DNA of 12,502 nucleotides. It comes from a virus. The notes under the pieces were generated by a model. The model was given only the letters and a program-made list of their open reading frames with translations. It made no database searches and had not been told where the DNA came from. Both the position numbers and the translations under genes were made by a program. Location of the stretch: the UHGV virus genome UHGV-1789726. One strand, given 5' to 3'. Shown here piece by piece: positions 1-12,502 of the stretch. How positions within the stretch are numbered: the first letter of the stretch is position 1; every line of letters starts with the position of its first letter.

Positions 1-19
1 TATGTCGTAGGTCTGACTC

Positions 20-47
20 ACCCATTTTTTGGGCGTTGGTGTATAAT
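20..47 (+). promoter_or_regulatory. Candidate sigma70 promoter: perfect TATAAT at 42-47 preceded by TG at 40-41, weak -35
   Basis: TATAAT hexamer read at 42-47 about 160 nt upstream of the first gene; no good TTGACA-like -35 at 17 bp spacing. Could be activator-dependent. Confidence 0.3.
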
Positions 48-81
48 CCAGCGCCTTTGTCAATCAATGGTGGCTCAGGCG

Positions 82-174
82 GGGGCTTCTTCGGAAGCGC
101 CGGTATCCTTCAGAGCCGGTTACGCCAACCCTGTCTGGGCTACCACCAGCGAAATTGGCGTTTCCGGTGGTAGC
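82..174 (+). promoter_or_regulatory. Structured 5' leader: UUCG-tetraloop hairpin (stem 85-89/94-98) and a 9-bp-stem hairpin (139-147/166-174)
   Basis: GCTTC-TTCG-GAAGC at 85-98; GCTACCACC (139-147) pairs with GGTGGTAGC (166-174) across an 18-nt loop. The 180-aa ORF called across this region has no RBS and low-complexity translation. Confidence 0.3.
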
Positions 175-203
175 GTAACCTGCTATCTGAAGGAGGCTGC
201 CAC

Positions 204-398
204 ATGCTGGCTACTACCCCTACCCAAAAAACGCAATTTATCTGGATTATCGCCGCAGTTCGCCGCGATTGCCCGACAATTACCGCCAAAATTCATCATA
301 TTGCTGCCGAGTCTGAACGCGATGCTCGCCGTTCTCTGGTGCGCGATCACATCTGCTTTTTTGCTGGTCGTATCCGCATGGAGGTGGCACATGATTAA
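204..398 (+). CDS. Small early protein, Icd/Kil-like (host cell-division inhibitor family of P4-type prophages), 64 aa
   Basis: AGGAGG at 191-196, 7 nt before ATG 204. Translation (FIWIIAAVRRD...RRSLVRDHICFFAGRIRMEVAHD) resembles Icd-like proteins from memory, unverified. Stop overlaps next start (ATGATTAA). Confidence 0.55.
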   Translation: MLATTPTQKTQFIWIIAAVRRDCPTITAKIHHIAAESERDARRSLVRDHICFFAGRIRMEVAHD

Positions 399-609
399 AA
401 CCTACGATGTGCATATGGATCCCCTCGAACGCACAAGCCAGATCATCACACTGACAGAAGTGATTAACGACATTCTGGTGAGCAACTCTCCCTCACGAGA
501 CGAAAAACTGAAGGCGTTACTCGCGATATTGGACCTCGCCGTTCGTGACGTTCATTTCCTGCTGGAAGGTGGACAAATGCCATGCAAAACGGGGGCAACC
601 AATGAATAA
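391..609 (+). CDS. Hypothetical small protein, 72 aa (internal start of the 67..609 track ORF)
   Basis: GGAGG at 381-385 before ATG 391; start overlaps the previous stop; stop overlaps next start. Confidence 0.5.
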   Translation: MIKTYDVHMDPLERTSQIITLTEVINDILVSNSPSRDEKLKALLAILDLAVRDVHFLLEGGQMPCKTGATNE

Positions 610-796
610 CTCAATTAATACCCCTCGCCTTACGTCCGCACTTCAATTAATCGAGCAAGCAGCGGCTGTCCTGGTTGCTGTCAGTCTTTCGGCTGAAGAA
701 ATGGACGCTGCTGATGTCGTGGATGCGATTAAAGCGTGCTCATCTTTGGTTAACGATGCCCGTGCCGAGCTGGTAATTCTTGGGGGTGAAAAATGA
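602..796 (+). CDS. Hypothetical small protein, 64 aa (internal start of the 545..796 track ORF)
   Basis: ATG 602 preceded by a G-rich SD-like run (GGGGG); overlaps previous stop 607-609; stop overlaps next ATG at 793. Confidence 0.45.
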   Translation: MNNSINTPRLTSALQLIEQAAAVLVAVSLSAEEMDAADVVDAIKACSSLVNDARAELVILGGEK

Positions 797-1056
797 ATAT
801 CAACTTAATTTATCGTCATCCGTGTGAGCTGGAAATTGAATCATTGCTGGGGCGCGAAGAGCCATATCCAGACACATTCACTCCCGCAGATTGCGCGACT
901 GAACGGCTTACCAGAGCGCGCACAGGTCTGGTTCATGTGATGAATGAGATTGTTCCCTCGGTGGGAGGGGAACAGGCGACAGTAATCAATAGCTGGCTAC
1001 AAAAAGTTACCTCCCTGATAGATATCGGTTTAATCGATGTGGAGAGTGCGAAATGA
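793..1056 (+). CDS. Hypothetical protein, 87 aa
   Basis: GGGGGTGA SD-like sequence before ATG 793; ATGA overlaps at both ends. Confidence 0.55.
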   Translation: MNINLIYRHPCELEIESLLGREEPYPDTFTPADCATERLTRARTGLVHVMNEIVPSVGGEQATVINSWLQKVTSLIDIGLIDVESAK

Positions 1057-1274
1057 CCAACATCCAGCTCATTGAAGCGCAATGTCGCATCGAACAGGTT
1101 CAGACTGTTTTAGGGTTCTGGCTTGAAGGGGCCAGCCCCAGCAACAGAGACAAGTTAATGATTGGCGCGGTTATGTCACTGCTCAATGGCGTACCAGAAG
1201 CTATTCAGGAAGCGGACGAATTGTTGGGCAAATATGAGTTACAGAATCATTCAGGCGAGGCGAAACATGAATAA
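1053..1274 (+). CDS. Hypothetical protein, 73 aa
   Basis: GGAGAG before ATG 1053; overlaps neighbours at both ends. Confidence 0.5.
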   Translation: MTNIQLIEAQCRIEQVQTVLGFWLEGASPSNRDKLMIGAVMSLLNGVPEAIQEADELLGKYELQNHSGEAKHE

Positions 1275-1869
1275 TTTCTTAACTTTCCATGCAGAAGCAA
1301 CGCCTGACGGCGTAAACATCATGTACCGCAGCAACGATGGCATGACAGAACGCGTTGAGACCGTCTCATATATTGATGCCGTAAATCGTCTGGATGCCGG
1401 GGATTATGACGATAAACCAGATGAAGGCATGTTTATACATCTCGCTATTGCCAGTGGCGGCAACCAGGGATATTTCGATTACACATCACAGCATCACGTG
1501 ATTATGTGGCGCTGGCTGATAGCAACAGCATTCATCAATGAAATGAGAAAGGAAAACGGCACTGTCAGCATCATTGATGATACTGGCAATCCTTCCGAAG
1601 TGGCTGTTTATTCCAACGGCATCGTCGCCATGCCGCTGTATCCAGTAGCAGAGCGCCTCGCTATGGCAAACAACATTGAGGGCGCGATGATAGAACGTTT
1701 TGGCATCGAGTCTGGCACAGAACGCGCCATCATTTTCTACAGAGCCATGATGGATGTGGAACAAGGAGCACTGACTCCATTTGGTCGTGAAACGCTTGCT
1801 GAACTTCACAACAGCTTTATAGCTGAACTGAATGAAAACGGCATGCCAGCGGAACCAGTGACGCACTGA
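1267..1869 (+). CDS. Hypothetical protein, 200 aa (internal start of the 1162..1869 track ORF)
   Basis: ATG 1267 overlaps the stop of the previous gene (ATGAATAA); GAGG upstream. The N-terminal extension in the track has no RBS and overlaps the previous gene. Confidence 0.6.
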   Translation: MNNFLTFHAEATPDGVNIMYRSNDGMTERVETVSYIDAVNRLDAGDYDDKPDEGMFIHLAIASGGNQGYFDYTSQHHVIMWRWLIATAFINEMRKENGTVSIIDDTGNPSEVAVYSNGIVAMPLYPVAERLAMANNIEGAMIERFGIESGTERAIIFYRAMMDVEQGALTPFGRETLAELHNSFIAELNENGMPAEPVTH

Positions 1870-1879
1870 GGATGGAGCC

Positions 1880-2221
1880 ATGATTACTAAAAATTTCCGA
1901 CTGAATGCGCTGGCAAATAAGTATGCGTCAGCACTGTATAACCACATTACCTCCACCAGCGGCGGGGACTATTTCATGATTGATGCGGACGGAGAGGCCG
2001 TCCGTGTGGAAATCGTCAATGGAGTAAAAGGCGTTCGCAGCCTGATCGATAGTTACGCACTGGCAGCCATGAAAGTGTTCTACCCGCAGTGGGAAACCGT
2101 GGGGATCGAGCTTCTTGATCGTTGCGTCACTAAGGACAGATTGACTGACGTCGGGCGTGAGATATGGCAAAGCATGGTTAATGACATGGGCGCAACTGTA
2201 GCGGGAGGTTCTCATGCGTGA
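1880..2221 (+). CDS. Hypothetical protein, 113 aa
   Basis: GAGGATGGAG SD-like sequence 5-8 nt before ATG 1880; 10-nt gap from previous stop. Confidence 0.65.
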   Translation: MITKNFRLNALANKYASALYNHITSTSGGDYFMIDADGEAVRVEIVNGVKGVRSLIDSYALAAMKVFYPQWETVGIELLDRCVTKDRLTDVGREIWQSMVNDMGATVAGGSHA

Positions 2222-2585
2222 AAATGTAGAAATGGCGCTTAGCTCCGCAATCGGAGAGCAGGTGGCAAAGATTGCTGGTGCTGTGTGGATTCATAACCTT
2301 CATTCTACTGGTGAAGAGAAAATGGCAATTCAGACGCCAGAGGGACGCACCATTACTACATCTCTGAAGCCGTCAGATGTTTGTGATCTGATTTGCGCAT
2401 TCATGTACCCAGCAATGAGGACTGTCCACGGCGATAAGTGGAAACTTGCGACAACCGCTGAATTTGATATGTGGCTAAACAATGATGGCATGCTGACTGA
2501 TTACGGAATAACCAAGTGGCAGATGCTAGTTAGCCATATCGCAAACGCTATAGACCACGTGGGGTACGGTGATGCGAAACATTGA
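2214..2585 (+). CDS. Hypothetical protein, 123 aa
   Basis: GGGAGG before ATG 2214; start overlaps previous stop; stop overlaps primase start. Confidence 0.65.
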   Translation: MRENVEMALSSAIGEQVAKIAGAVWIHNLHSTGEEKMAIQTPEGRTITTSLKPSDVCDLICAFMYPAMRTVHGDKWKLATTAEFDMWLNNDGMLTDYGITKWQMLVSHIANAIDHVGYGDAKH

Positions 2586-5328
2586 TCTTATCCGTCAGGT
2601 TATCAGTGCGTCTGAAAACAACTGGCCTCATGTGCTGGGCTGCCTGAACATAAATGTCCCTGACTCTCCGCGCCGTCATGCTCCCTGCCCTGCATGTGGG
2701 GGCAAAGATCGATTCCGGTTCGATGACAACGGGCGCGGTAGCTTCATCTGTAATCAGTGCGGCGCTGGTGATGGGCTGGATTTAATTAAACGCGTAAATA
2801 ACTGCGACACAACAGAGGCGGCGCTTCTTGCCGCTGATGTTCTGGGTATTGATTACCGGACAACGGAAACACCAGAAGCCACCAGCCAGAAACGGGAACA
2901 ACTGGAAACCGAGCGCCAGCGACGCGAACAGGAGCGCCTGAAAAGGGCAGAGAAGGACGAACAACAAAGACGGGATACGTTTTCCCGTCAGTTTGATGAC
3001 ATGCGCAGAAAGGCTGTAAACGGCAAATCTGATTATCTGGTTGCGAAAGGGGTAGGTGATTTTACATTCCCCGTGTTGCCCGATGGATCTCTGTTGCTGG
3101 CGCTGGTGGATAAATCCGGCGCAGTAACAGCAGCACAGACTATTACCTCACATGGTGAAAAAAGACTCCTGACAGGTTCAGCAAAGCGAGGGGCATATCA
3201 CGCCATAAACGCACCAGAAACAACACAGAGCATCTTAATCGCAGAAGGGCTGGCAACGGCATTATCTGCCCATTTAATGCGTCCAGAGGCGCTGACAGTG
3301 GCGGCGATTGATGCCGGGAACCTGTTATATGTCGCCCAGGTACTGCGGGATAAATTTCCTTCAGCACAAATCATCATTGCTGCGGATAACGACCACAGCG
3401 AAGGAAGACAAAACACGGGGAGAATAGCAGCAGAAAAAGCAGCTTTATCTGTTTCTGGATGGGTGGCATTACCCCCGACAGATCACAAAGCAGACTGGAA
3501 TGATTACCACCAAAAACACGGCATTAAATGCGCCACAGAAGCGTTCAATAAGTCAATGTACCAACCACAGGGTAATGGCGTGAAACAGGAGCCACAGACC
3601 ATTGAGGGAAGCGATTTTAAGGTTATGGATACCGATCCACTGAAACCAAGAATAGAAAGCCGCGAGGATGGTATTTATTGGGTATCTCCGAGAGCTGACA
3701 GCCAGAGTGGAGAAATCATCAATAACGAAAGCTGGTTATGTTCTCCGTTAAGCGTTATCGGTACTGGCAGAGACGATAAAGACCAGTATCTCATTCTTCG
3801 CTGGCTGTCGTTTGGTTCTGAAACGCCGACAACCGCTGCCATTCCACTGGCTGATATTGGTGAACGTGAAGGATGGCGCACACTTAAAGCTGGTGGGGTA
3901 AATGTCACGACCAAAAGCAGCCTCAGAGCAATACTGGCAGACTGGCTACAACGCAGTGGCTCTCGTGAATTGTGGCGTGTTGCTCATGCCACTGGCTGGC
4001 AATGCGGAGCGTACATCATGCCTGATGGGGAAATCATCGGAACACCTGAAAATCCTGTGCTGTTCAGCGGGAGAAGCTCAGCCGCAGCCGGATATACCGT
4101 CTCAGGGAGCGCGAAAAGCTGGCGTGATAACGTGGCGCGTCTGGCCTTTGGTAACTATTCAATGATGACCGGGATCGGCGCAGCACTGGCAGCGCCATTG
4201 ATTGGGCTGGTGGGCGCTGACGGGTTCGGCATTCATTTCTATGAGCAGTCGAGCGCAGGTAAGACCACCACGGCAAACGTGGCGAGCAGCTTATACGGCA
4301 ACCCTGATTTACTGCGGCTGACGTGGTACGGAACCGCGCTGGGGCTGGCAAATGAGGCCGCCGCCCACAATGACGGACTAATGCCGCTTGATGAAGTTGG
4401 TCAGGGCGCTGATCCTGTCAGCGTTTCACAGTCTGCCTATGCGTTATTTAACGGTGTAGGGAAACTGCAAGGCGCTAAAGATGGTGGAAACCGGGATCTA
4501 AAACGCTGGCGTACAGTGGCAATCAGCACCGGAGAAATGGATTTAGAAACATTTATCGCTACTTCCGGGCGAAAAACCAAAGCCGGGCAACTGGTGCGAC
4601 TGCTGAATATTCCGTTGAGTAAAGCAGTACGCTTTCACGATTACCAGAACGGAAAACAGCACGCAGACGCACTGAAAGACGCTTACCAGCATCACCACGG
4701 CGCGTCCGGGCGTGAGTGGATTAAATGGCTGGCAGACCACCAGCAACAGGCTATTAAAACCGTTCGTGACTGCGAAAGCAGATGGAGAAGCCTGATCCCA
4801 TCCGATTATGGTGAGCAGGTTCACCGTGTAGCCGCGCGATTTGCCATTCTGGAGGCCGCATTGTTGTTAGGCGAGGTTGTAACAGGCTGGGATGCTCAGA
4901 CATGCCGTGATGCGATACAGCACAGCTATAACGCATGGTTGCGCGAGTTCGGCACAGGTAACAAAGAGCATCAGCAGATTATTGAACAAACGGAGGCATT
5001 TCTTAATGCCTATGGGCTTAGCCGTTTTGCACCATTTCCATACAGCCCGGCAGATTTGCCCATCAAAGATTTAGCCGGATACCGTCAGCGTGGAGAACAT
5101 GACGAAAGCCCAATGATTTTCTACACATTCCCGGCCACATTTGAAAAGGAGATCGCATGTGGTTTCAACGCAAAACAGTTTGCTGAAGTGTTGAAAAAAG
5201 CCGGGATGCTAACCCCACCAAACAGCGGTCGTGGATACCAAAGAAAATCACCACGTATTCAGGGACGACAAATAAACGTTTATGTACTCAATTACCAGCC
5301 AGGAGATTACAACTCATCTGAAGAATGA
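2572..5328 (+). CDS. Primase-helicase (P4 alpha / PICI Pri-Rep type): N-terminal zinc ribbon, TOPRIM, C-terminal P-loop domain; about 918 aa
   Basis: CPACGG...CNQCG zinc ribbon (nt ~2686-2766); TOPRIM signature with IAEG Glu (nt ~3244) and AADND (nt ~3385); SSAGKTT P-loop (nt ~4258). ATG 2572 preferred over the track's GTG 2569. Confidence 0.9.
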   Translation: MRNIDLIRQVISASENNWPHVLGCLNINVPDSPRRHAPCPACGGKDRFRFDDNGRGSFICNQCGAGDGLDLIKRVNNCDTTEAALLAADVLGIDYRTTETPEATSQKREQLETERQRREQERLKRAEKDEQQRRDTFSRQFDDMRRKAVNGKSDYLVAKGVGDFTFPVLPDGSLLLALVDKSGAVTAAQTITSHGEKRLLTGSAKRGAYHAINAPETTQSILIAEGLATALSAHLMRPEALTVAAIDAGNLLYVAQVLRDKFPSAQIIIAADNDHSEGRQNTGRIAAEKAALSVSGWVALPPTDHKADWNDYHQKHGIKCATEAFNKSMYQPQGNGVKQEPQTIEGSDFKVMDTDPLKPRIESREDGIYWVSPRADSQSGEIINNESWLCSPLSVIGTGRDDKDQYLILRWLSFGSETPTTAAIPLADIGEREGWRTLKAGGVNVTTKSSLRAILADWLQRSGSRELWRVAHATGWQCGAYIMPDGEIIGTPENPVLFSGRSSAAAGYTVSGSAKSWRDNVARLAFGNYSMMTGIGAALAAPLIGLVGADGFGIHFYEQSSAGKTTTANVASSLYGNPDLLRLTWYGTALGLANEAAAHNDGLMPLDEVGQGADPVSVSQSAYALFNGVGKLQGAKDGGNRDLKRWRTVAISTGEMDLETFIATSGRKTKAGQLVRLLNIPLSKAVRFHDYQNGKQHADALKDAYQHHHGASGREWIKWLADHQQQAIKTVRDCESRWRSLIPSDYGEQVHRVAARFAILEAALLLGEVVTGWDAQTCRDAIQHSYNAWLREFGTGNKEHQQIIEQTEAFLNAYGLSRFAPFPYSPADLPIKDLAGYRQRGEHDESPMIFYTFPATFEKEIACGFNAKQFAEVLKKAGMLTPPNSGRGYQRKSPRIQGRQINVYVLNYQPGDYNSSEE

Positions 5329-5353
5329 GCTTCTTCATGTGCGTAGAAAAGGC

Positions 5354-5464
5354 GTTGGTTCAGTTGGTTCAGTTGGTTCAATTTGTAAAGAGTATTGTTT
5401 TATAAGGATTTTATTCTTTTTATTGAACCAACACTGAACCAACAACACGGTATTTTGAACCAAC
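5354..5464. repeat. Iteron cluster / candidate origin: 3 tandem GTTGGTTCA, a 43-bp AT-rich spacer, then 3 inverted copies TGAACCAAC
   Basis: Direct copies at 5354-5362, 5363-5371, 5372-5380; AT-rich 5381-5423; inverted copies at 5424-5432, 5435-5443, 5456-5464 (11 bp and 21 bp centre-to-centre). Sits immediately 3' of the primase gene. Confidence 0.65.
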
Positions 5465-5784
5465 ACAATGTGACTGAATTGATGCGCACAACACCTGGCT
5501 GGCATCAGAGAGTGTTTTACGAGACTTTCGTAAAATCCTGTGTACAAGGGCGTGACGTTTTTGAAAGTGAGCACTACGAAATTTTCGTAGTTCAGAAAAC
5601 AGCCTCTGAGAAGTTGTTATGCCTGTTCAGCAAACCATCCGCATAGCTGATCGCGAATCAAATTACCAATGGAGCCAGAAGCAAGGGCAGAACTGAAAAG
5701 CGCCTGCCGTGAAGAGTAATGCGACACCATAAATATAGTTTTTAGAGTCCATAAAAAACCTGTCAAAACCTGACACACAGAACG

Positions 5785-5817
5785 ATGCCACCAGCTACTG
5801 AGCGGTGGCATTTTTTT
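5785..5817 (+). terminator. Rho-independent terminator
   Basis: 8-bp stem ATGCCACC (5785-5792) / GGTGGCAT (5804-5811) with an 11-nt loop, followed by a T7 run (5811-5817). Confidence 0.6.
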
Positions 5818-5912
5818 GTGCTATTTGTTTCATATTTTGCAATTACGATGATGAATATTGCGATTTGTGAAACTATAATAACTGTTGTTTTATACAGTTC
5901 TAAGGGGGCGTT

Positions 5913-6074
5913 ATGGCTATTTCAGTAAAGCCGGTATTGATAAGTGAGAAGCAAATGGAAGCGATAAAGAAAATTCAGGAAGAGCAGCGTAAAAAATCAG
6001 GAATTGGAGTAGCGCCAACTCTGCATGAAATTGCACGAGGGTTAATAGATAAGGCGCTGGCAGGCTGTATGTGA
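5913..6074 (+). CDS. Small ORF, 53 aa, absent from the ORF track; possible ribbon-helix-helix (Arc/MetJ-like) regulator
   Basis: AAGGGGG at 5902-5908, 4 nt before ATG 5913; stop TGA 6072-6074. Translation MAISVKPVLISEKQMEAIKKIQEEQRKKSGIGVAPTLHEIARGLIDKALAGCM has a strand-helix-helix layout. Fold assignment is inference. Confidence 0.45.
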   Translation: MAISVKPVLISEKQMEAIKKIQEEQRKKSGIGVAPTLHEIARGLIDKALAGCM

Positions 6075-6090
6075 AAATGGATGGCATCGC

Positions 6091-6552
6091 ATGGAACTAA
6101 AATTTATTGATAACCCTGTGCGATTACAGGCCTTTCTTAACGAGCCAGGCAATACCGAAAATATTGTTGAGCCGGGGCACACGTACTACATCAAGCCTGA
6201 TGCGGTATATCTCGGCATCTACGAAGGATTAGTGCTGGCTGGCGTTCATGAAGTGCGTAACTTCTGGCATAGCGTTGTTGAATGCCATGCGGTGTACGAC
6301 CCCGGATTCCGTGGTGAATATGCACTGCAAGGACATCGATTATTCTGCAAATGGCTTCTCGAAAACTCACCATTCCTTAACAGCATCACTATGGTTCCTG
6401 ACACCACGAAATACGGACGGGCAATTATCCGTTTGCTTGGCGCTACCCGTGTTGGTCACCTTGATGATGCTTATATCAGATGTGGTAAACCCGTCGGCGT
6501 AACGCTTTATCAGTTAACTCGGCAACAATATAAGGAATTCAGCGAATGTTAA
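6091..6552 (+). CDS. Hypothetical protein, 153 aa; first gene of the four-gene cassette
   Basis: Long ORF, non-repetitive sequence; stop overlaps next start (6546). Confidence 0.7.
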   Translation: MELKFIDNPVRLQAFLNEPGNTENIVEPGHTYYIKPDAVYLGIYEGLVLAGVHEVRNFWHSVVECHAVYDPGFRGEYALQGHRLFCKWLLENSPFLNSITMVPDTTKYGRAIIRLLGATRVGHLDDAYIRCGKPVGVTLYQLTRQQYKEFSEC

Positions 6553-7223
6553 TTACCCATATAGCTCATAAACATCTCAATCGTGCCGTATACGAAAAAG
6601 GCGGTGATGGTGGTGCCTCTAAAGCTCAGGCGAAGGCCCAGCAGCAGGCAATTGATTTGCAGCGCGAGCAGTGGAATACGGTGATGAATAATCTCAAGCC
6701 GTATGCAGAAGTCGGATTGCCTGCTTTACAACAACTACAAGGACTGATGACTCTGGAAGGGCAGAATAAAGCCGCGAATGATTTCTTTGGTTCTGGTTTA
6801 TATAAAACACAGGCAGATCAGGCCCGTTATCAGAACCTTGTCTCAGCAGAAGCTACCGGGGGGCTTGGCTCAACAGCTACCAGTAACCAGTTATCTTCCA
6901 TTGCGCCCATGCTTTATAACAATTGGCTTAGTGGGCAAATGCAAAATTATGGAAACCTGCTAAATGTCGGGATGAATGCGGCATCAGGGCAGGCAACGGC
7001 AGGGCAAAACTACGCCAATAATACCGGACAACTCTTGCAGGGGCTTGGCGCTATTCGTGCAGGTCAGGCGCAGCAGCCATCCAGTCTTGCGCGTGGTATT
7101 GGTGGGGCAGCATCAGGCGCTTTAGCGGGTGCGCAACTTGGTTCCGTTGTTCCTGGAATAGGAACTGCGGCCGGCGCTATTGGTGGTGGGCTTATTGGTC
7201 TTGTTGGGGGGCTTGGATTCTAA
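6546..7223 (+). CDS. Q/N/A/G-rich protein, 225 aa, with C-terminal glycine-zipper hydrophobic segment; internal-virion/ejection-protein-like
   Basis: AAGGAA 9 nt before ATG 6546. C-terminus GIGGAASGALAGAQLGSVVPGIGTAAGAIGGGLIGLVGGLGF (nt ~7083-7220). Stop overlaps next start (TAATG). Confidence 0.75.
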   Translation: MLITHIAHKHLNRAVYEKGGDGGASKAQAKAQQQAIDLQREQWNTVMNNLKPYAEVGLPALQQLQGLMTLEGQNKAANDFFGSGLYKTQADQARYQNLVSAEATGGLGSTATSNQLSSIAPMLYNNWLSGQMQNYGNLLNVGMNAASGQATAGQNYANNTGQLLQGLGAIRAGQAQQPSSLARGIGGAASGALAGAQLGSVVPGIGTAAGAIGGGLIGLVGGLGF

Positions 7224-8542
7224 TGGCGACATGGCAACTTGGCGGGCTGCCTAGCATGGCACCGCAAAATGATAATGCTCCTCGTTCTTCCGTTCCTCAG
7301 CCTGTGCAGTATCAGCAGCAGCCAAACGTAGGTTTAATGGCGCTACAGGGGCTAAGAGGCGTTGCTGAGATTAATCAGCAGGCGCAAATTTCCCAGCAGC
7401 TAAAAGAATATCAGGCACGGTTGGGTAGTGCGGTAGCTAATAATGATCGTGTTGGCGTGCAGAAGTTAATGGCCCAGTATCCCCAGTTTATGGCTGATTC
7501 TCAAAAACAGATGGGATTCATTGATGCTGAGCAAAATCGGCAGACCGCTGACGCTGCCATGAATCTGCGTCTTGCGTCACAAACTGGAGATCCACTGACC
7601 ATGCAGAAGGCCATTCAGCAGGCAAATCCAGTATTACAGCGATTTGGTCTTCCTGCTGAAGAGGTTTATCAGTCTTGGCAGAATGACCCACAGGAATTCA
7701 ACAGAATCACTGACCTCATCCACCTCCATGCTGATCCAAATAGTTACTTTAGTGTTCAAGAGAAGCAGCAAGGGCAGAGTATTGCACAGCAGAACGCAGA
7801 TACATCTGCATATAATGCTCAGGTTAATGCGGAGCAGGGTAATCGGCGGCTCGATATGGAGCAGTTCAAAGTCCTATCCGATAACCAACTACGCACGAGA
7901 GAAATGGTTCTGAAAGCACGACTTGGACGTGCTCAAAATGACATCGAGAGAGACAAGCTCAATGCTGAACTGAGCAAGGTACAGCAGGCGAAAGTGGAGA
8001 AGATGAACGATAAAATTAATACTGTTGCAGGTAATATCGACTCCTTGAACTCTGCGCTTGAAGTGGGTCATGAACTGGCGGGAATTGTAGGGAAACATCC
8101 TTCGGCCGTTACCCGTTCGCAGAACTATAACCCCCTGACGCTGGGGTTTGGATTCCTCCCTGATGTAGCAGAAGACACACGAAGCCTACGCGCCAAAGCT
8201 GATGAATACAACCTAAAGGTTATTCTGCCTAGCCTAAAAGGTACTTTTGGCTCTAACCCAACCGAAGGGGAAAGGGCTGCCCTTATGCAATCTCAAAATG
8301 GCATTAAGTCAGCAACCAGCAATGAGGCATTTTTGCGAGAGTTGAATAAAGCGCAGGACGTAATTATTCGAATGCAGAAACGACAGATTGCCGGGCTCGG
8401 TATTCCTGTAACCAAATCTAAGGACGAAGAAACTGATACCAAAATGCTGTTGCAGGATCCTTCACTGGTTAAGGATTATGTGACCGCACATGGCTATCTG
8501 CCGGAAAGTTACTATCAGGCAAAACTTAAGGGATGGCAATGA
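7223..8542 (+). CDS. Gln-rich, predicted helical/coiled-coil protein, 439 aa; internal-virion/ejection-protein-like
   Basis: Long ORF coupled at both ends; Q/A/N-rich composition. Confidence 0.8.
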   Translation: MATWQLGGLPSMAPQNDNAPRSSVPQPVQYQQQPNVGLMALQGLRGVAEINQQAQISQQLKEYQARLGSAVANNDRVGVQKLMAQYPQFMADSQKQMGFIDAEQNRQTADAAMNLRLASQTGDPLTMQKAIQQANPVLQRFGLPAEEVYQSWQNDPQEFNRITDLIHLHADPNSYFSVQEKQQGQSIAQQNADTSAYNAQVNAEQGNRRLDMEQFKVLSDNQLRTREMVLKARLGRAQNDIERDKLNAELSKVQQAKVEKMNDKINTVAGNIDSLNSALEVGHELAGIVGKHPSAVTRSQNYNPLTLGFGFLPDVAEDTRSLRAKADEYNLKVILPSLKGTFGSNPTEGERAALMQSQNGIKSATSNEAFLRELNKAQDVIIRMQKRQIAGLGIPVTKSKDEETDTKMLLQDPSLVKDYVTAHGYLPESYYQAKLKGWQ

Positions 8543-11259
8543 TGGCACAACTGACAGAAAAACAGAAAGCCTATTCCCGTCATCTCGATGAAAAATATGG
8601 TTTCCCATCAGGGACGATGGAAACATTAGTTGGCAATGAATCTAGTGGTAACGGAAGTGCCGAGTCACCGAAAGGAGCTAGAGGATTTGCTCAACTGATG
8701 CCCTCAGTAATGAGTGATGCTGGTTATCGTGGAACAGATCCGCGCTCACTGCCATTTGAAAAGCAAATGGATATCGCAGCAAACCATCTCAATAAAGGAA
8801 TGAAGCGATTTGGTGATATAGGTATGGCATTGGCTGGGTATAATTCTGGCTATGCTCGTATTAATGCCGTAAGAAACGGTAAATCTACACTGCCAGATGA
8901 AACGGCTAATTACGTAAGTAAATTTGCAGATGCCGGAATAATCCCTGATGACAGTGAAATCTTGCAGTTTGCACAAACCAGTCAACATCGCAATCTTCAG
9001 CAGCCTGACTACTCAGAGCTTGATAAAGAAATCTCTCAGGTGGGAGATATTTCTGCATGGGAAGCAAAACGTCAGCAATTTAAGAACATAGAAGCAGGAC
9101 TACCAACAGCCAGTTCATGGGAGCAGAAAAGAGCTCAGTTTCTCGCCGATGAAAATGCCGGGGAACCGCAGCAGCAAGTAGCCAAGTCTAACCTTAATCC
9201 TGAGATGGAATATCTTTCGCCAGGACTGAAAGCTGCGCCAGAGCAGATGGCCAGAGGGATTGCTAATATACCGTTTGATGTAATGGACGCAGGCGTGGGG
9301 GTAGTCAATGCGGCGCAATCAGCCGGAGCATGGGCAGCTCAGAAGCTTGGTGTGGGTGATGGCACATACACGCCCATATCACCTGTCTTTCGCCCAGTAG
9401 ACCAACCTACAGATCCATACGCGCAGGCTGGTGAGCAGCTAGCACCTTACCTTATTACAGGATTAGGTGCAGGAAAGGCAGCTACCGCAGCTTCTTCAGT
9501 TGCCAACGCTCCACGTGCTGAACGTGCGGCCACAAAGGTGGCTAGTATGTTGGCAGAAAACCTGCCAGGTACATTGGTGAACGCCCAAAAGAACGGGCAG
9601 ATCAGCCCAGAAGACCTAGCAAAAGAGACAGGTATTGGCCTAGCAGGATCGCTAGGAGCACGCGCTTTAATAAAGAGCGGACAGACAGCCAGTGACGTAA
9701 TGCGAGATGTATTGCGGAGTAATACAAATCAATCAGGCCATGTGTTAGGGGCAGCAAATACTCTGGAAACCGCCAATGATGTATCGAAAGCAGCGCGTTC
9801 TGCCGTAGGCCGAGAGCATATCGCATCGCAGGCATCAAACGTCAGAGATGATGTCGCTAAGGCGGCGAAAATCACTGGTATTAATATCAACACCCTGACG
9901 CCTGGAATGCGCTCAGGTAGTCGTGGAATTGCCCAAGCAGAAGGTGTTCTGGCATCAACTCCTGGGAATGTTCAGGATGCTCACCTTACGGCCTTCAATG
10001 AAATATCCTCAAAGTTGAATAAGCAGTTGTCTGATTTCGGTGCTGAGTCTGGAAGCGCATCAGAAAAAAGCGCAGCAATTAAAGAGCGCATCATCGCGAG
10101 CCTCAGTGATATGAAAACAGCAGAGAATATGGCATGGGCAGAACTGCGAAGCACGATGCCACGCGAAAGGATGAAAATGAGTAATGGGATGGCTGTCGTC
10201 CAAGCAGAAAAAGCAGCCAATGTTCCACTCAGCCCGGAGATGAAACAGTTTCAGGCTGCCAACAACCAAGGTGGCGGCATAACCTTCGACGGGATGAAGG
10301 CATGGCGTGCTAAGTTTGCTGATGCTGAACAAGCAAACACCCGGGCAGGTAAGGCCAATGCCGCCCGGATTGCCGGAGAAATGCGCAGAGCTATCACTGA
10401 TGACATGCGCATCATGGCTGAAAAAGGAAACTTCCTCACAGAATGGCAGAAAGCTAACGATCTCTCTAAAAGTTACATTATCGCCAAACAAAATGCCGAA
10501 TCTGTTTTTGGTCGAGATCTCGCATCAGACGCTATGGTAAGAAAAGGTGCCGATACGCTTAAGGCATCCGCAAACACTGGAACTGGAGCTTTTCACCGTC
10601 TTATCTCCGCGCTGCCGGAAGCAGAACGCCAACCAGCAATAGCATCTATTCTTCAGCATGCTGTGGCGCAGGGAGAGAAGGGAGGAATCGGTGAAGAGTC
10701 TGGTATCCAGTATTTTGCCAAGCTCATGACCCAGCAGAATGTAAACGCCATCAGTCGTCATGCGCCAGATCTCGGTAGAATGATGAAAGAGTTCGGTGTA
10801 CTCGCTAAAGCCAGCACCAGACCGCAGCGATACGTAGAGCGCACGGGAAGAACAACTGAGGCTCTCAAAACGCTCGATTCAGGCCTTCCAAAGATCGTCG
10901 GCGTGATTATGAACGGAGTTCAACAGTCAGGTGCGATCGCTGGAGGCTTTGGCGGTGGTGTAATTGGTTCGATTAGTGGTTTGGTTGCTGGTGGCGCGCT
11001 GAGAAATACTGTGGCTAAGATTGGGGCGACAAGAAGTGGTAGGTATGCGATAGAGAAAGCCGTTCAGGAAGCTACAAAAGCAGTGCGCGCAGGGGCATCA
11101 CCAGCAGCGATCGCCGCAGCAGAGAAACGATTTTCGGCCAATAAAATTGCCATGAAAGCAATTCGTGATGCCGTTGGGGCTGAAGAATTCGTGAAACTGA
11201 CAAGGGCCGGGATTGTAGCTACCCTCAGTGGCATGAAAGATGTTAGCGAATGGGAATAG
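8533..11259 (+). CDS. Large protein, 908 aa, with N-terminal family-1 lytic transglycosylase (SLT) motif set and a glycine-zipper segment near the C-terminus
   Basis: Motifs E-S (GNESSGN, nt ~8638), G-x-x-Q (GARGFAQLMP, nt ~8692), A-Y-N-x-G (ALAGYNSGYA, nt ~8839); GAIAGGFGGGVIGSISGLVAGGA at nt ~10900-11000. Start may be 8533, 8539 or 8542; AAGGGA at 8526-8531 favours 8539. Confidence 0.85.
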   Translation: MAMMAQLTEKQKAYSRHLDEKYGFPSGTMETLVGNESSGNGSAESPKGARGFAQLMPSVMSDAGYRGTDPRSLPFEKQMDIAANHLNKGMKRFGDIGMALAGYNSGYARINAVRNGKSTLPDETANYVSKFADAGIIPDDSEILQFAQTSQHRNLQQPDYSELDKEISQVGDISAWEAKRQQFKNIEAGLPTASSWEQKRAQFLADENAGEPQQQVAKSNLNPEMEYLSPGLKAAPEQMARGIANIPFDVMDAGVGVVNAAQSAGAWAAQKLGVGDGTYTPISPVFRPVDQPTDPYAQAGEQLAPYLITGLGAGKAATAASSVANAPRAERAATKVASMLAENLPGTLVNAQKNGQISPEDLAKETGIGLAGSLGARALIKSGQTASDVMRDVLRSNTNQSGHVLGAANTLETANDVSKAARSAVGREHIASQASNVRDDVAKAAKITGININTLTPGMRSGSRGIAQAEGVLASTPGNVQDAHLTAFNEISSKLNKQLSDFGAESGSASEKSAAIKERIIASLSDMKTAENMAWAELRSTMPRERMKMSNGMAVVQAEKAANVPLSPEMKQFQAANNQGGGITFDGMKAWRAKFADAEQANTRAGKANAARIAGEMRRAITDDMRIMAEKGNFLTEWQKANDLSKSYIIAKQNAESVFGRDLASDAMVRKGADTLKASANTGTGAFHRLISALPEAERQPAIASILQHAVAQGEKGGIGEESGIQYFAKLMTQQNVNAISRHAPDLGRMMKEFGVLAKASTRPQRYVERTGRTTEALKTLDSGLPKIVGVIMNGVQQSGAIAGGFGGGVIGSISGLVAGGALRNTVAKIGATRSGRYAIEKAVQEATKAVRAGASPAAIAAAEKRFSANKIAMKAIRDAVGAEEFVKLTRAGIVATLSGMKDVSEWE

Positions 11260-11409
11260 ACGCTCTAACTAACAAAACCATAATAGCCAAGGACGGCATA
11301 CTGATATTGAGCCAACTATCAAAATTCCATATCACATTACGGGCCTGTGGCTTACATTCGCTTACAGTGATGATAATTTATAACCACGCAATTCTTAGGT
11401 GAGATTATC

Positions 11410-12108
11410 ATGATTAAAAATCTTCTTTTAATATTATCCCTGTCATTATTGGCTGGATGCGTACAAAAACCGTTAGTAACGGTCAATGCTTTATCTTCCG
11501 GGCAATCTGTCGGTAAGAAGTTCTTGATCATCCCCGCAAGCCAAGAACTTTGGAACACCAAACAGATTGAATACACTCAAATAGCTACGGTAGTAGCCGC
11601 CAGTTTATCAAGCCAAGGATATACACAAGTTAAAGATGAAAAATTGGCTGACCAGGTAATTCTCTTGAACTTTTTGAGAAGCGGGGCCATTTCAAATACT
11701 CGTAATGTAACCATCCCAATATACGGGCAAACTGGTGTGAGCTCAGCAACAACGTACGGAAACTCGAACACCACGTTCAATAGTTATGGTGGTGGCTACG
11801 GTACAGCTAATACCACTGGAACGGCAACAACAGTTTATACGCCTACTTATGGAATTACTGGCGCGTATAACACAACTGTGACGGACACGTTCTACGGCGC
11901 AGGGGTGATACTCCAGTCGTTTGATGCCAAGGCTTATCTCAATAATAGGCAGATTAATATGTTATGGAAAGTTGGTAGCTCAGTCGTCTCGCAACAGTCT
12001 GATGGAATTGCTGATTACAAGGGGTTGGCGAGAATAGCCGCTAGCTATGCCGGGAAAAATACAGAAGGTGATATAACTTTTAATGTTGACCCTAAAGCAC
12101 CAAATTAA
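11410..12108 (+). CDS. Putative lipoprotein, 232 aa, with Thr/Gly/Tyr/Asn-rich central region
   Basis: AGGTGA 7 nt before ATG 11410; signal peptide plus lipobox MIKNLLLILSLSLLAGC. Region looks more AT-rich than the rest by eye. Confidence 0.8.
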   Translation: MIKNLLLILSLSLLAGCVQKPLVTVNALSSGQSVGKKFLIIPASQELWNTKQIEYTQIATVVAASLSSQGYTQVKDEKLADQVILLNFLRSGAISNTRNVTIPIYGQTGVSSATTYGNSNTTFNSYGGGYGTANTTGTATTVYTPTYGITGAYNTTVTDTFYGAGVILQSFDAKAYLNNRQINMLWKVGSSVVSQQSDGIADYKGLARIAASYAGKNTEGDITFNVDPKAPN

Positions 12109-12115
12109 CTAATAA

Positions 12116-12137
12116 GCCCGGTACGCCGGGCATTTAT
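12116..12137 (+). terminator. Weak terminator-like hairpin after the lipoprotein gene
   Basis: GCCCGG (12116-12121) / CCGGGC (12126-12131) with a TACG loop, followed by ATTTAT; T-tract is poor. Confidence 0.35.
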
Positions 12138-12236
12138 GCCCCTATTATTCATGAATCGCTTTTTCTAGAAGGTATGCGACAAACGTTAAGTGACATTGCC
12201 TACACATTCGGGGCGGGATTTCAAATCCGCTCCCAG

Positions 12237-12408
12237 TTGATGGGGGGCGTTACAGTACGCGCATATCCGCTTTATGTGAAACAGGAAGATTTTTCTGATA
12301 TCACTGCCACAGCAAAACACCAATTTCGTGACCAGTACGCGCGCGAGGGGTATCAGTTGCAAAAAATTTTGCAACTACGTCCGACCAGTACGCACACGAT
12401 GGCGGGGG
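12237..12408. repeat. Repeat-rich noncoding region: three copies of CAGTACGC, two longer direct repeats flanking a 20-bp palindrome
   Basis: CAGTACGC at 12253-12260, 12333-12340, 12386-12393; GACCAGTACGC at 12330-12340 and 12383-12393; palindrome GTTGCAAAA-AA-TTTTGCAAC at 12356-12375; GATGG(G/C)GGGG at 12237-12247 and 12398-12408. Confidence 0.45.
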
Positions 12409-12502
12409 ATACCATAAAACTGTTCTCTACATGAGACAGAGTGGTGGTGAACCGCCCCGGGAATCCTGGAGACTAAACTTCCTGAGAAAGAGGTAAACAG
12501 GA

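Follow-up and report, generated by a model that had tools for sequence, protein, structure and literature searches.

We analysed a stretch of 12,502 nt from the virus genome UHGV-1789726 (hereafter the window, meaning this whole stretch at its full length), which matches Escherichia coli chromosomes with 99% identity and lies there within an island of ~20 kb at tRNA-Thr beside proA. Positions 190-12450 are 98.8% identical to the copy of EcCIMP1 in E. coli MP1, and window and EcCIMP1 have the tRNA-Thr (proA/yagU) site, the gene order and the size class in common. Judged by this resemblance, the window is an EcCIMP1-type phage-inducible chromosomal island (PICI) of E. coli. EcCIMP1 itself is a PICI of E. 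coli MP1 with a length of 19,963 bp, located at tRNA-Thr between proA and yagU, and its excision and transfer were shown by experiment to require the P22-like phage vB_EcoP_Kapi1, alpA acts as its master regulator and induction in this PICI family proceeds via AlpA (Pick, Stadel and Raivio 2025, PMC11773190). Here we describe the chain of eight small genes at positions 204-2585, which runs into the primase gene of the island, together with the RNA elements at its head that would control it.

The gene chain and its junctions

The chain consists of eight open reading frames (ORFs) on the plus strand, every one of them starting with ATG: g1 (204-398, 64 aa), g2 (391-609, 72 aa), g3 (602-796, 64 aa), g4 (793-1056, 87 aa), g5 (1053-1274, 73 aa), g6 (1267-1869, 200 aa), g7 (1880-2221, 113 aa) and g8 (2214-2585, 123 aa). 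The last gene of the chain, on the same strand, encodes a primase-helicase of 918 aa (2572-5328) with matches in Pfam and PHROGs, comprising a zinc ribbon, a Toprim and a DUF927 part. Seven of the eight junctions overlap; in order, they measure 8, 8, 4, 4 and 8 nt, followed by a 10-nt gap and by overlaps of 8 and 14 nt. The shared 8 nt are ATGATTAA between g1 and g2, ATGAATAA both between g2 and g3 and between g5 and g6, and ATGCGTGA between g7 and g8. The two 4-nt overlaps (g3/g4 and g4/g5) read ATGA, and g8 has the 14 nt ATGCGAAACATTGA in common with the primase gene. The sole junction without overlap, between g6 and g7, is the plus-strand gap GGATGGAGCC at 1870-1879. A Shine-Dalgarno-like duplex of -6 to -12 kcal/mol is present 5' of each of the nine starts. 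The overlapping run starts upstream of the window, not at 204, and includes there the genes for AlpA, a hypothetical protein, AntA/B and DUF4222.

In comparison with diverged orthologs, the nonsynonymous divergence (pN) of all eight genes is far under the synonymous divergence (pS), with a ratio of the corresponding substitution rates (dN/dS) of ~0.1-0.4 where it could be estimated, and on these alignments all eight are judged to be under purifying selection. The Prokaryotic Genome Annotation Pipeline (PGAP) calls g3-g8 intact, as six hypothetical proteins, in other E. coli copies. A primase-based scan gave 77 loci, and the order g1, g4, g5, g6, g7 is kept in Enterobacter, Klebsiella, Kosakonia, Lonsdalea, Pluralibacter, Leclercia, Pantoea, Erwinia and others at 30-87% amino acid identity. 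The genes g2, g3 and g8 are sporadic accessory genes across these relatives, intact wherever they are present. When the chain was followed from the Icd-like gene to the primase gene in 25 homologous loci of other genera, 110 of the 132 junctions were found to overlap (by 4 nt in 70 cases and by 8 nt in 30), counts that are somewhat generous because the start-picking rule prefers the nearest start. The remaining 22 junctions are gaps of 6-16 nt, nearly all of them 3' of the g6 homolog. On this comparison the overlap pattern is not a matter of chance, the stacking being kept even where gene content differs. The gap at 1870-1879 is, as these alignments indicate, a recombination and module boundary too: several E. 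coli matches (H45-H48) end at 1867, locus L080 has the primase gene directly 3' of the g6 homolog, and in L081 the g7 homolog lies 5' of a primase of another type (DUF5906).

A C4-type RNA and its target in the leader of g1

Upstream of g1, positions 63-150 of the plus strand hold a gene for a C4/CI-type antisense immunity RNA, matched over its full length by Rfam RF01695 with 79.9 bits (gathering score 45) and an E-value of 9e-15. The predicted fold has a minimum free energy of -46.4 kcal/mol (z -4.9), its internal helices covary, and the 3' end of the RNA is tRNA-like (...ACCACCA). Two segments of this RNA have complements in the leader, all on the plus strand. The b' specificity loop (106-114, UCCUUCAGA) is the perfect complement of the b2 target at 186-194 (TCTGAAGGA, also written UCUGAAGGA), which overlaps the g1 Shine-Dalgarno sequence AAGGAGG (190-196), while the single-stranded a' segment (122-128, ACGCCAA) is the complement of the a2 target TTGGCGT at 155-161. 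An initial guess for a2, GCGTAACC at 173-180, was dropped when the alignment gave the site at 155-161. The duplex energy at the b2 site, -14.2 kcal/mol, is below that of all 159 control windows.

Covariation was assessed in 23 aligned leaders from at least nine genera, 22 of them distinct, by counting pairs on a structure that we specified. Compensatory changes were found in seven of the nine base pairs of the b'/b2 helix and in six of the seven of the a'/a2 helix, in which 100% of the alignment cells are paired (22 distinct sequences in both cases). Over the whole structure 98.3% of cells form a standard pair, compared to 33-48% when the 3' partners are slid by 1-3 columns, and none of 500 shuffles matched the observed covariation, a figure that, like the Fisher figures, overstates independence, the compared loci being interrelated. 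The same co-variation is seen at short distance: relative to the sister element L001, which is 99.4% identical to the window overall, three changes in b' are matched by three in b2. In EcCIMP1 the first ~190 nt (C4 RNA and leader) differ from the window and are of another specificity type, b' being CCTTCAGA in the window and CCTTGTAC in MP1, and of the 139 mismatches between the two over the first 2,600 nt, 80 are located within the first 200 nt. By this concentration of mismatches and the matched b'/b2 changes, the immunity cassette has therefore been swapped or diversified, the operon being otherwise constant. As read from the sequence, the locus combines the C4 fold, a target overlapping a ribosome-binding site and an icd/kil-like first gene, which are marks of a C4/CI immunity module.

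Further elements surround the RNA gene. Directly left of window position 1, sister L001 carries an isrK match (Rfam, 67 bits) with a terminator hairpin and a U run at its end. In the relatives, target copies lie upstream as well: a1 was found in all 22 loci and b1 in 17 of these. A TATAAT box at 42-47 on the plus strand, 5' of the C4 RNA and 3' of the isrK-like terminator that precedes the window, is a candidate -10 element of an internal promoter resembling PLE of P4; most aligned loci have TATAAT or nearly this sequence at that place.

The RNA gene at 63-150 is absent from the feature tables of L001 and EcCIMP1/MP1, the two copies checked. The C4 core (97-171) has 84-87% DNA identity to ORFs of lambdoid and Stx-converting phages whose annotation is Rha, antirepressor or 'immunity region', and C4-type RNAs thus appear to be embedded in annotated ORFs of many phages. 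Five primase relatives (L020, L022, L024, L040 and L060) also have an Icd-like first gene and a tight overlapping chain, but a different leader, in which no C4 or isrK match was obtained at Rfam thresholds. Between their int and alpA genes lies the int-alpA RNA motif (RF02996), and they may be of another RNA or control type.

A long reading frame across the RNA gene

Frame 1 of the plus strand is open over positions 1-609 and runs off the left end of the window; this is the 3' part of a long ORF that PGAP annotates as a 355-aa 'ash family protein'. In L001 there is an overlap between its ATG and the stop codon of DUF4222, the last gene of the AlpA-headed run upstream. The long ORF crosses the C4 RNA gene, the leader and, out of frame, g1, contains g2 in frame and stops at the g2 stop. 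It is open in 23 of 23 related loci, from 228-825 nt upstream of C4 onwards. Fourteen of these loci have the long ORF in frame with the Icd-like gene and sharing its stop, which is the nested kil/eta arrangement of P4. The other nine, the window included, have it passing into the Icd-like gene in the +1 frame, and eight of these show its end at the stop of the next gene. The +1 frame of icd is stop-free in all nine loci that use it, whereas each of the 14 others has one or more stops there, located at no fewer than five positions in total, an association that does not amount to 23 independent trials, the loci being related. This pattern argues, at the level of the alignment, that selection preserves the passage of ribosomes. 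Since no locus of the 23 has the long ORF closed and the absence of stops goes with the frame in use, the ORF is probably translated, and for the same reason we rejected in part the idea that the 355-aa Ash ORF is a pure annotation artefact over RNA genes.

What is conserved in this ORF does not look like protein over its whole length. In the C4 part the three codon positions diverge equally (0.316, 0.303 and 0.311) and codon periodicity is lacking, unlike in g1, where they show the usual coding pattern (0.157, 0.120 and 0.379); conservation of the long ORF over C4 is therefore imposed by the RNA. The Pfam family Phage_ASH (PF10554) matches the long ORF with 105 bits at residues 124-232, corresponding to window -89 to 237 (L001 14911-15237), and this footprint coincides with isrK, C4 and the leader, so that the family signal may largely consist of translated RNA genes. 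By its position and its read-through arrangement we take the long ORF to be an analogue of P4 eta.

PGAP renders the region in three ways among near-identical elements, as a 355-aa Ash protein in L001, as a 234-aa "Icd-like" protein in L081 and as a 64-aa Icd-like protein with an Ash pseudogene in L082, and g2 is unannotated in MP1. Combining these observations, we put forward a proposition to which we give a little less than an even chance as a whole: that the eta-like ORF of ~40% of the elements, the window among them, passes over the entire Icd/Kil gene in the +1 frame and is fused there to the gene that follows; that what is selected is the transit of ribosomes across the RNA target and the terminator region and not any protein product; that the 'Ash family protein' (PF10554) consists for the most part of two RNA elements in translation; and that near-identical islands with different, perfectly compensated C4/target types are heteroimmune satellite lineages. 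If so, such lineages would exclude or ignore each other through RNA immunity.

Comparison with P4, P1 and Gifsy-1

The translation of eta and kil and its relation to immunity termination in P4 were reportedly described by Forti et al. in 1999. The left operon and immunity region of P4 (seqA-PLE-CI RNA-seqC-kil/eta-eps-orf151-cnr-alpha) resembles the window in several respects. An isrK match followed by a C4 match in Rfam lies 5' of kil, corresponding to the CI RNA and seqA region, and the P4 leader aligns by eye with that of the window up to ...GGAGGCTGCCA-ATG. In both, a long ORF from the alpA-side operon passes through the RNA gene. The junctions are alike as well, kil/eps and eps/orf151 overlapping by 8 nt and cnr/alpha having a separation of 14 nt. 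In both, the primase gene closes the operon after a gene that in the window is possibly Cnr-like and a short gap, with g7 and g8 in between in the window. In P4, translation of eta from an upstream late promoter prevents immunity-specific termination, as part of the eta/kil/CI/seqA logic, with eta coupled to an alpA homolog, and C4 and isrK matches within "Bro-zone" genes of Gram-negative PICIs have already been noted (PMC10111431). Unlike P4, the window belongs to an element with a P22-like helper and not P2, it has no homologs of Eps or ORF151, its primase has a DUF927 helicase part and is similar to alpha only in the N-terminal domain (32% identity over residues 7-361), and its long ORF is out of frame (+1) with kil/icd and ends with g2. 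The annotation of the whole island includes neither sid, delta and psu nor eps, and none of the products is similar to Eps; membership of the P4-like satellites (core int, alpA, eps, alpha, sid, delta and psu) was therefore rejected.

The C4 RNA of P1 and P7, its icd target and the dependence of downstream genes were reportedly worked out by Citron and Schuster in 1990 and Riedel et al. in 1993. As in the P1/P7 immI region (a1 b1-c4-a2 b2-icd-ant1/2), the target in the window overlaps the ribosome-binding site of the first gene, which is Icd-like. The window differs from immI in its downstream cargo, where small genes in a chain and a primase take the place of the Ant antirepressor, and the AntA/B antirepressor of the island lies upstream of the RNA, not downstream. 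In the c4-icd-ant operon of P1 the C4 antisense RNA derives from the leader of the operon that it represses, and downstream genes need icd translation (PMC8198154). A third likeness is that to the IsrK locus of Gifsy-1 in Salmonella (PMC4825925), in that the element left of the window in the sisters is an isrK match with terminator hairpin and U run. In contrast to Gifsy-1 IsrK, this isrK-like element provides the upstream a1/b1 (seqA-type) partner of the C4 RNA.

A preliminary description of the locus, made from the sequence alone, had read 204-2585 as eight coupled small genes feeding into a primase, with seven overlapping junctions and a single gap of 10 nt (1869/1880), and had seen in this an early operon as known from P4/PICI-type elements, the first gene being Icd/Kil-like. 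Its coordinates proved exact, and the reading holds in view of pN and pS, the stacking conserved in 25 loci, the near identity to EcCIMP1, the homology of the leader to the P4 immunity region and the match of g1 to NCBIfam NF033153 (E 1e-19) with 39% identity to P4 kil (tblastn). The description was nevertheless incomplete: because it started at 204, it missed the C4 RNA and its target at g1, and the eta-like frame-1 ORF escaped it as well. The expected persistence of the ORFs in homologous elements applies to g1 and g4-g7, the order of which is conserved in other genera, and not to the sporadic g2, g3 and g8, even though these are intact where present. The suggested comparison with the P4 gene order gives agreement in a kil-like first gene, a possible Cnr-like gene and a terminal primase and none for Eps and ORF151.

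Proposed regulation of the operon and alternative explanations

We consider it likely that 204-2585 is the coding body of an early (replication) operon controlled by RNA immunity and built like the left operon of P4 and immI of P1, and we hold the homology of the architecture with more confidence than the individual steps. By analogy, a constitutive internal promoter would in the quiescent island give a short transcript from the operon's own leader, to be processed to a stable RNA. This C4 RNA would pair with the leader and block translation of g1, and Rho could then load on the untranslated, C-rich start of g1 and terminate transcription. Without untranslated gaps downstream, the whole chain including the primase gene would be on or off together. 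Upon induction of AlpA by the helper phage, transcripts from the upstream promoter would be translated continuously through the long ORF, and ribosomes crossing the targets and the terminator region would override immunity in the manner of P4 eta. With a C/G ratio of ~2 compared to a median of 0.86, the 5' part of g1 (196-299) is the most C-rich and G-poor segment of the region and in this is similar to a rut site, on which Rho loads. In this model the C4 RNA and its covarying target on the g1 ribosome-binding site give the coupled chain a regulatory meaning.

Some points weigh against the RNA-immunity model. Apart from the relatedness of the compared loci mentioned above, the Rho step, the promoter and the translational override are carried over from P4 and P1. 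No good -35 element accompanies the box at 42-47, and a consensus promoter scan called no promoter 5' of C4. The a1/b1 copy of this exact immunity type would lie left of window position 1; L065, which has the same b' type, carries a1/b1. Because each gene of the chain has its own Shine-Dalgarno sequence, strict translational coupling would not be required. Lastly, the link between g6 and Cnr described below is weak, neither g6 nor 23 relatives having a Pfam match at E <= 0.1.

The independent ribosome-binding sites are also what a plain compact operon would display, in which the overlaps are ordinary genome compaction with no regulatory load and each gene initiates independently. Overlaps of 4 and 8 nt are the commonest overlap classes in prokaryotic genomes, recognisable Shine-Dalgarno duplexes are found at all nine starts, and the gene content between g1 and the primase gene is mosaic, all in agreement with this explanation. 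It is quite improbable nonetheless: the tight stacking is kept in 25 loci despite gene swaps, the head of the operon is an RNA-targeted ribosome-binding site with a rut-like stretch, and the same arrangement works in P4 and P1 by polarity on the downstream genes (PMC10111431, PMC8198154). More radically, the PGAP model could be taken at face value, so that 1-609 would encode part of a single 355-aa Ash-family protein, g1 and g2 would not be separate genes and the C4 match would be incidental. That the long ORF is open in every related locus, that Phage_ASH matches it with 105 bits and that PGAP calls it in many genomes would agree with this, and yet we hold it to be highly improbable, for g1 matches NF033153 in another frame and has a perfect AAGGAGG, codon periodicity and a dN/dS of 0.1-0.3, and the footprint of Phage_ASH is that of isrK, C4 and the leader, the C4 part being aperiodic yet showing strong RNA covariation. 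PGAP is moreover inconsistent in itself, with its three different annotations among near-identical elements. Depending on the locus, it is g1 or g2 to which the long ORF is joined, and therefore no single protein product is conserved.

A different question is what the chain encodes. According to the preliminary description its products may include helper-interference or derepression factors, and several of g2-g8 could indeed act like P4 Eps instead of being accessories of replication or immunity. Satellites often put such genes in early operons, g2 sits exactly at the position of P4 eps with an equal 8-nt junction, g2, g3 and g8 are variable accessory genes, and the EcCIMP1 publication reports that the element affects superinfection and replication of Kapi1 (PMC11773190). 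Set against this, similarity to Eps or to any characterised interference protein is lacking among the products, and g6 and g7 accompany the primase gene from genus to genus, even where the primase is of another type, so that a replication role is indicated for them. In the same publication, the EcCIMP1 phenotypes mapped so far are assigned to alpA, alpA_1 and a repressor (PMC11773190). The proposal thus found no support, with no Eps-like product in the chain and induction running via AlpA, and we regard it as unlikely.

Products of the chain

For most products of the chain the preliminary description could assign no family, and this still applies to g2-g8, for which Pfam, NCBIfam and PADLOC gave nothing above threshold and PHROGs only families of unknown function (g5, g6 and g7). 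P1 Icd binds FtsZ and so blocks division (PMC11897509), and by analogy g1, with its normal codon periodicity, probably arrests cell division. The pS of g1 (0.35-0.5) is below that of the neighbouring genes (0.6-0.9) at similar or lower protein divergence, which fits an extra constraint, either from an overlapping frame or from RNA or terminator signals within g1. The gene g2 has a GGAGG Shine-Dalgarno sequence of its own and homologs at 40-45% identity in three other genera; it takes the place of P4 eps without sequence similarity to Eps. Outside Escherichia, g3 was found in L004 only (62% amino acid identity, dN/dS 0.20), whereas g4 has homologs at 44-55% amino acid identity in at least 12 loci. 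The product of g5 matches phrog_20558 (2.9e-9) and has 17 homologs at 34-53% identity. Profiles of g4 and g5 showed no relationship to P4 Eps, nor did the g5 profile to g2 and g3, and sequence-profile searches of the PDB with g4, g5, g6 and g7 were empty. No relative with a known function was detected for any of g2-g5.

The largest of the small products, that of g6, matches phrog_1515 (2e-47) and has 551 homologs. Alignment of the g6-family profile with the Cnr family profile (hhalign) extended over 55 columns with a probability of 77% and E 2e-5, residues 131-185 of g6 lying opposite residues 42-100 of P4 Cnr (DUF5375), the copy-number regulator whose gene directly precedes the primase gene in P4; with the single P4 Cnr sequence the probability was 38%. 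A few g6 homologs carry a precomputed PF17345 tag. Because of the alignment to the Cnr profile and its position before the primase, g6 is a candidate replication regulator, possibly Cnr-like, which may modulate the primase. Its AlphaFold2 model is poor, with a predicted local distance difference test (pLDDT) score of 58.8, too low for fold searching. The model of g7 is confident (pLDDT 91.6) and shows a helical bundle with a beta-hairpin, for which the PDB and BFVD yielded no informative match. In a BLASTP comparison g8 aligns with g7 at E 7e-4 and 23% identity over 97 aa, which suggests that g8 is probably a diverged paralog of g7. Outside Escherichia g8 was found only in L032 (53-54%).

Relation to previous work

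Much of the groundwork was already known: the element family has been in print since 2025, its regulatory logic goes back to studies of P4 and P1 in the 1990s, and C4 and isrK had been noted in Gram-negative PICIs (PMC10111431). In the accessible part of the EcCIMP1 publication the Ash family protein occurs only in a conservation survey, and the RNA module and g2-g8 are not described there (PMC11773190). Possibly new, in a modest way, is that the RNA module is explicitly assigned to islands of the EcCIMP1 type, that the eta-like ORF has a +1-frame variant, that most of the "Ash" domain signal may originate from RNA, that specificity is swapped between near-identical islands and that g6 may be Cnr-like. 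These results extend the known work on P4 and P1 and overturn none of it. For annotation, they offer a working regulatory model for a region in which PGAP conceals the Icd-like gene and g2 within the 355-aa Ash protein, fuses the long ORF to the Icd-like gene or makes Ash a pseudogene. By this model, changes of the b'/b2 bases or stop codons placed in the read-through ORF should turn EcCIMP1 replication on or off, and g6 is the first candidate for a regulator of the primase.

The island around the operon

The satellite family is common, 258 of 5,426 complete E. coli genomes carrying at least 80% of window positions 1-2600. In L001 the island begins with the genes for the integrase, AlpA, a hypothetical protein, the AntA/B antirepressor, DUF4222 and the "ash family protein", followed by six hypothetical genes and the TOPRIM/DUF927 primase. 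Behind these lie the genes for DUF2824, a P22 gp7-like, a P22 gp20-like and a 908-aa SLT-domain protein, and the island ends with a hypothetical 232-aa protein, Abi and PerC. The N-terminus of the 232-aa protein looks like a lipoprotein signal. The annotations of L001 and L082 thereby display the EcCIMP1-type layout of Gram-negative PICIs, namely int-alpA-(Bro/antirepressor zone)-primase-ori-late zone in one direction, over ~20 kb and at a tRNA site.

Just 3' of the primase gene, non-coding positions 5354-5380 contain three tandem copies of GTTGGTTCA, and 44 nt past these repeats, at 5424-5444, follow about two copies of the inverted unit TGAACCAAC(AC). Situated where Gram-negative PICIs have their ori, both repeats are candidate origin iterons. 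The late zone of the window (6091-11259) is a P22-type ejection-protein module with DUF2824 (gp14-like), gp7 and a gp20-type injectosome translocase, and the 908-aa protein, with an SLT lytic transglycosylase domain at its N-terminus, takes the position of gp16. Positions 6184-6579 are ~90% identical to the helper-type phage Kapi1. The right end of the window differs from EcCIMP1 in being IS629-like: the last ~58 nt (12445-12502) match the end of an element of the IS3 family of insertion sequences (IS629), with 100% identity in a Stx2a phage record. All E. coli island matches stop at 12450, and an insertion sequence has therefore inserted at the right side of the window copy.

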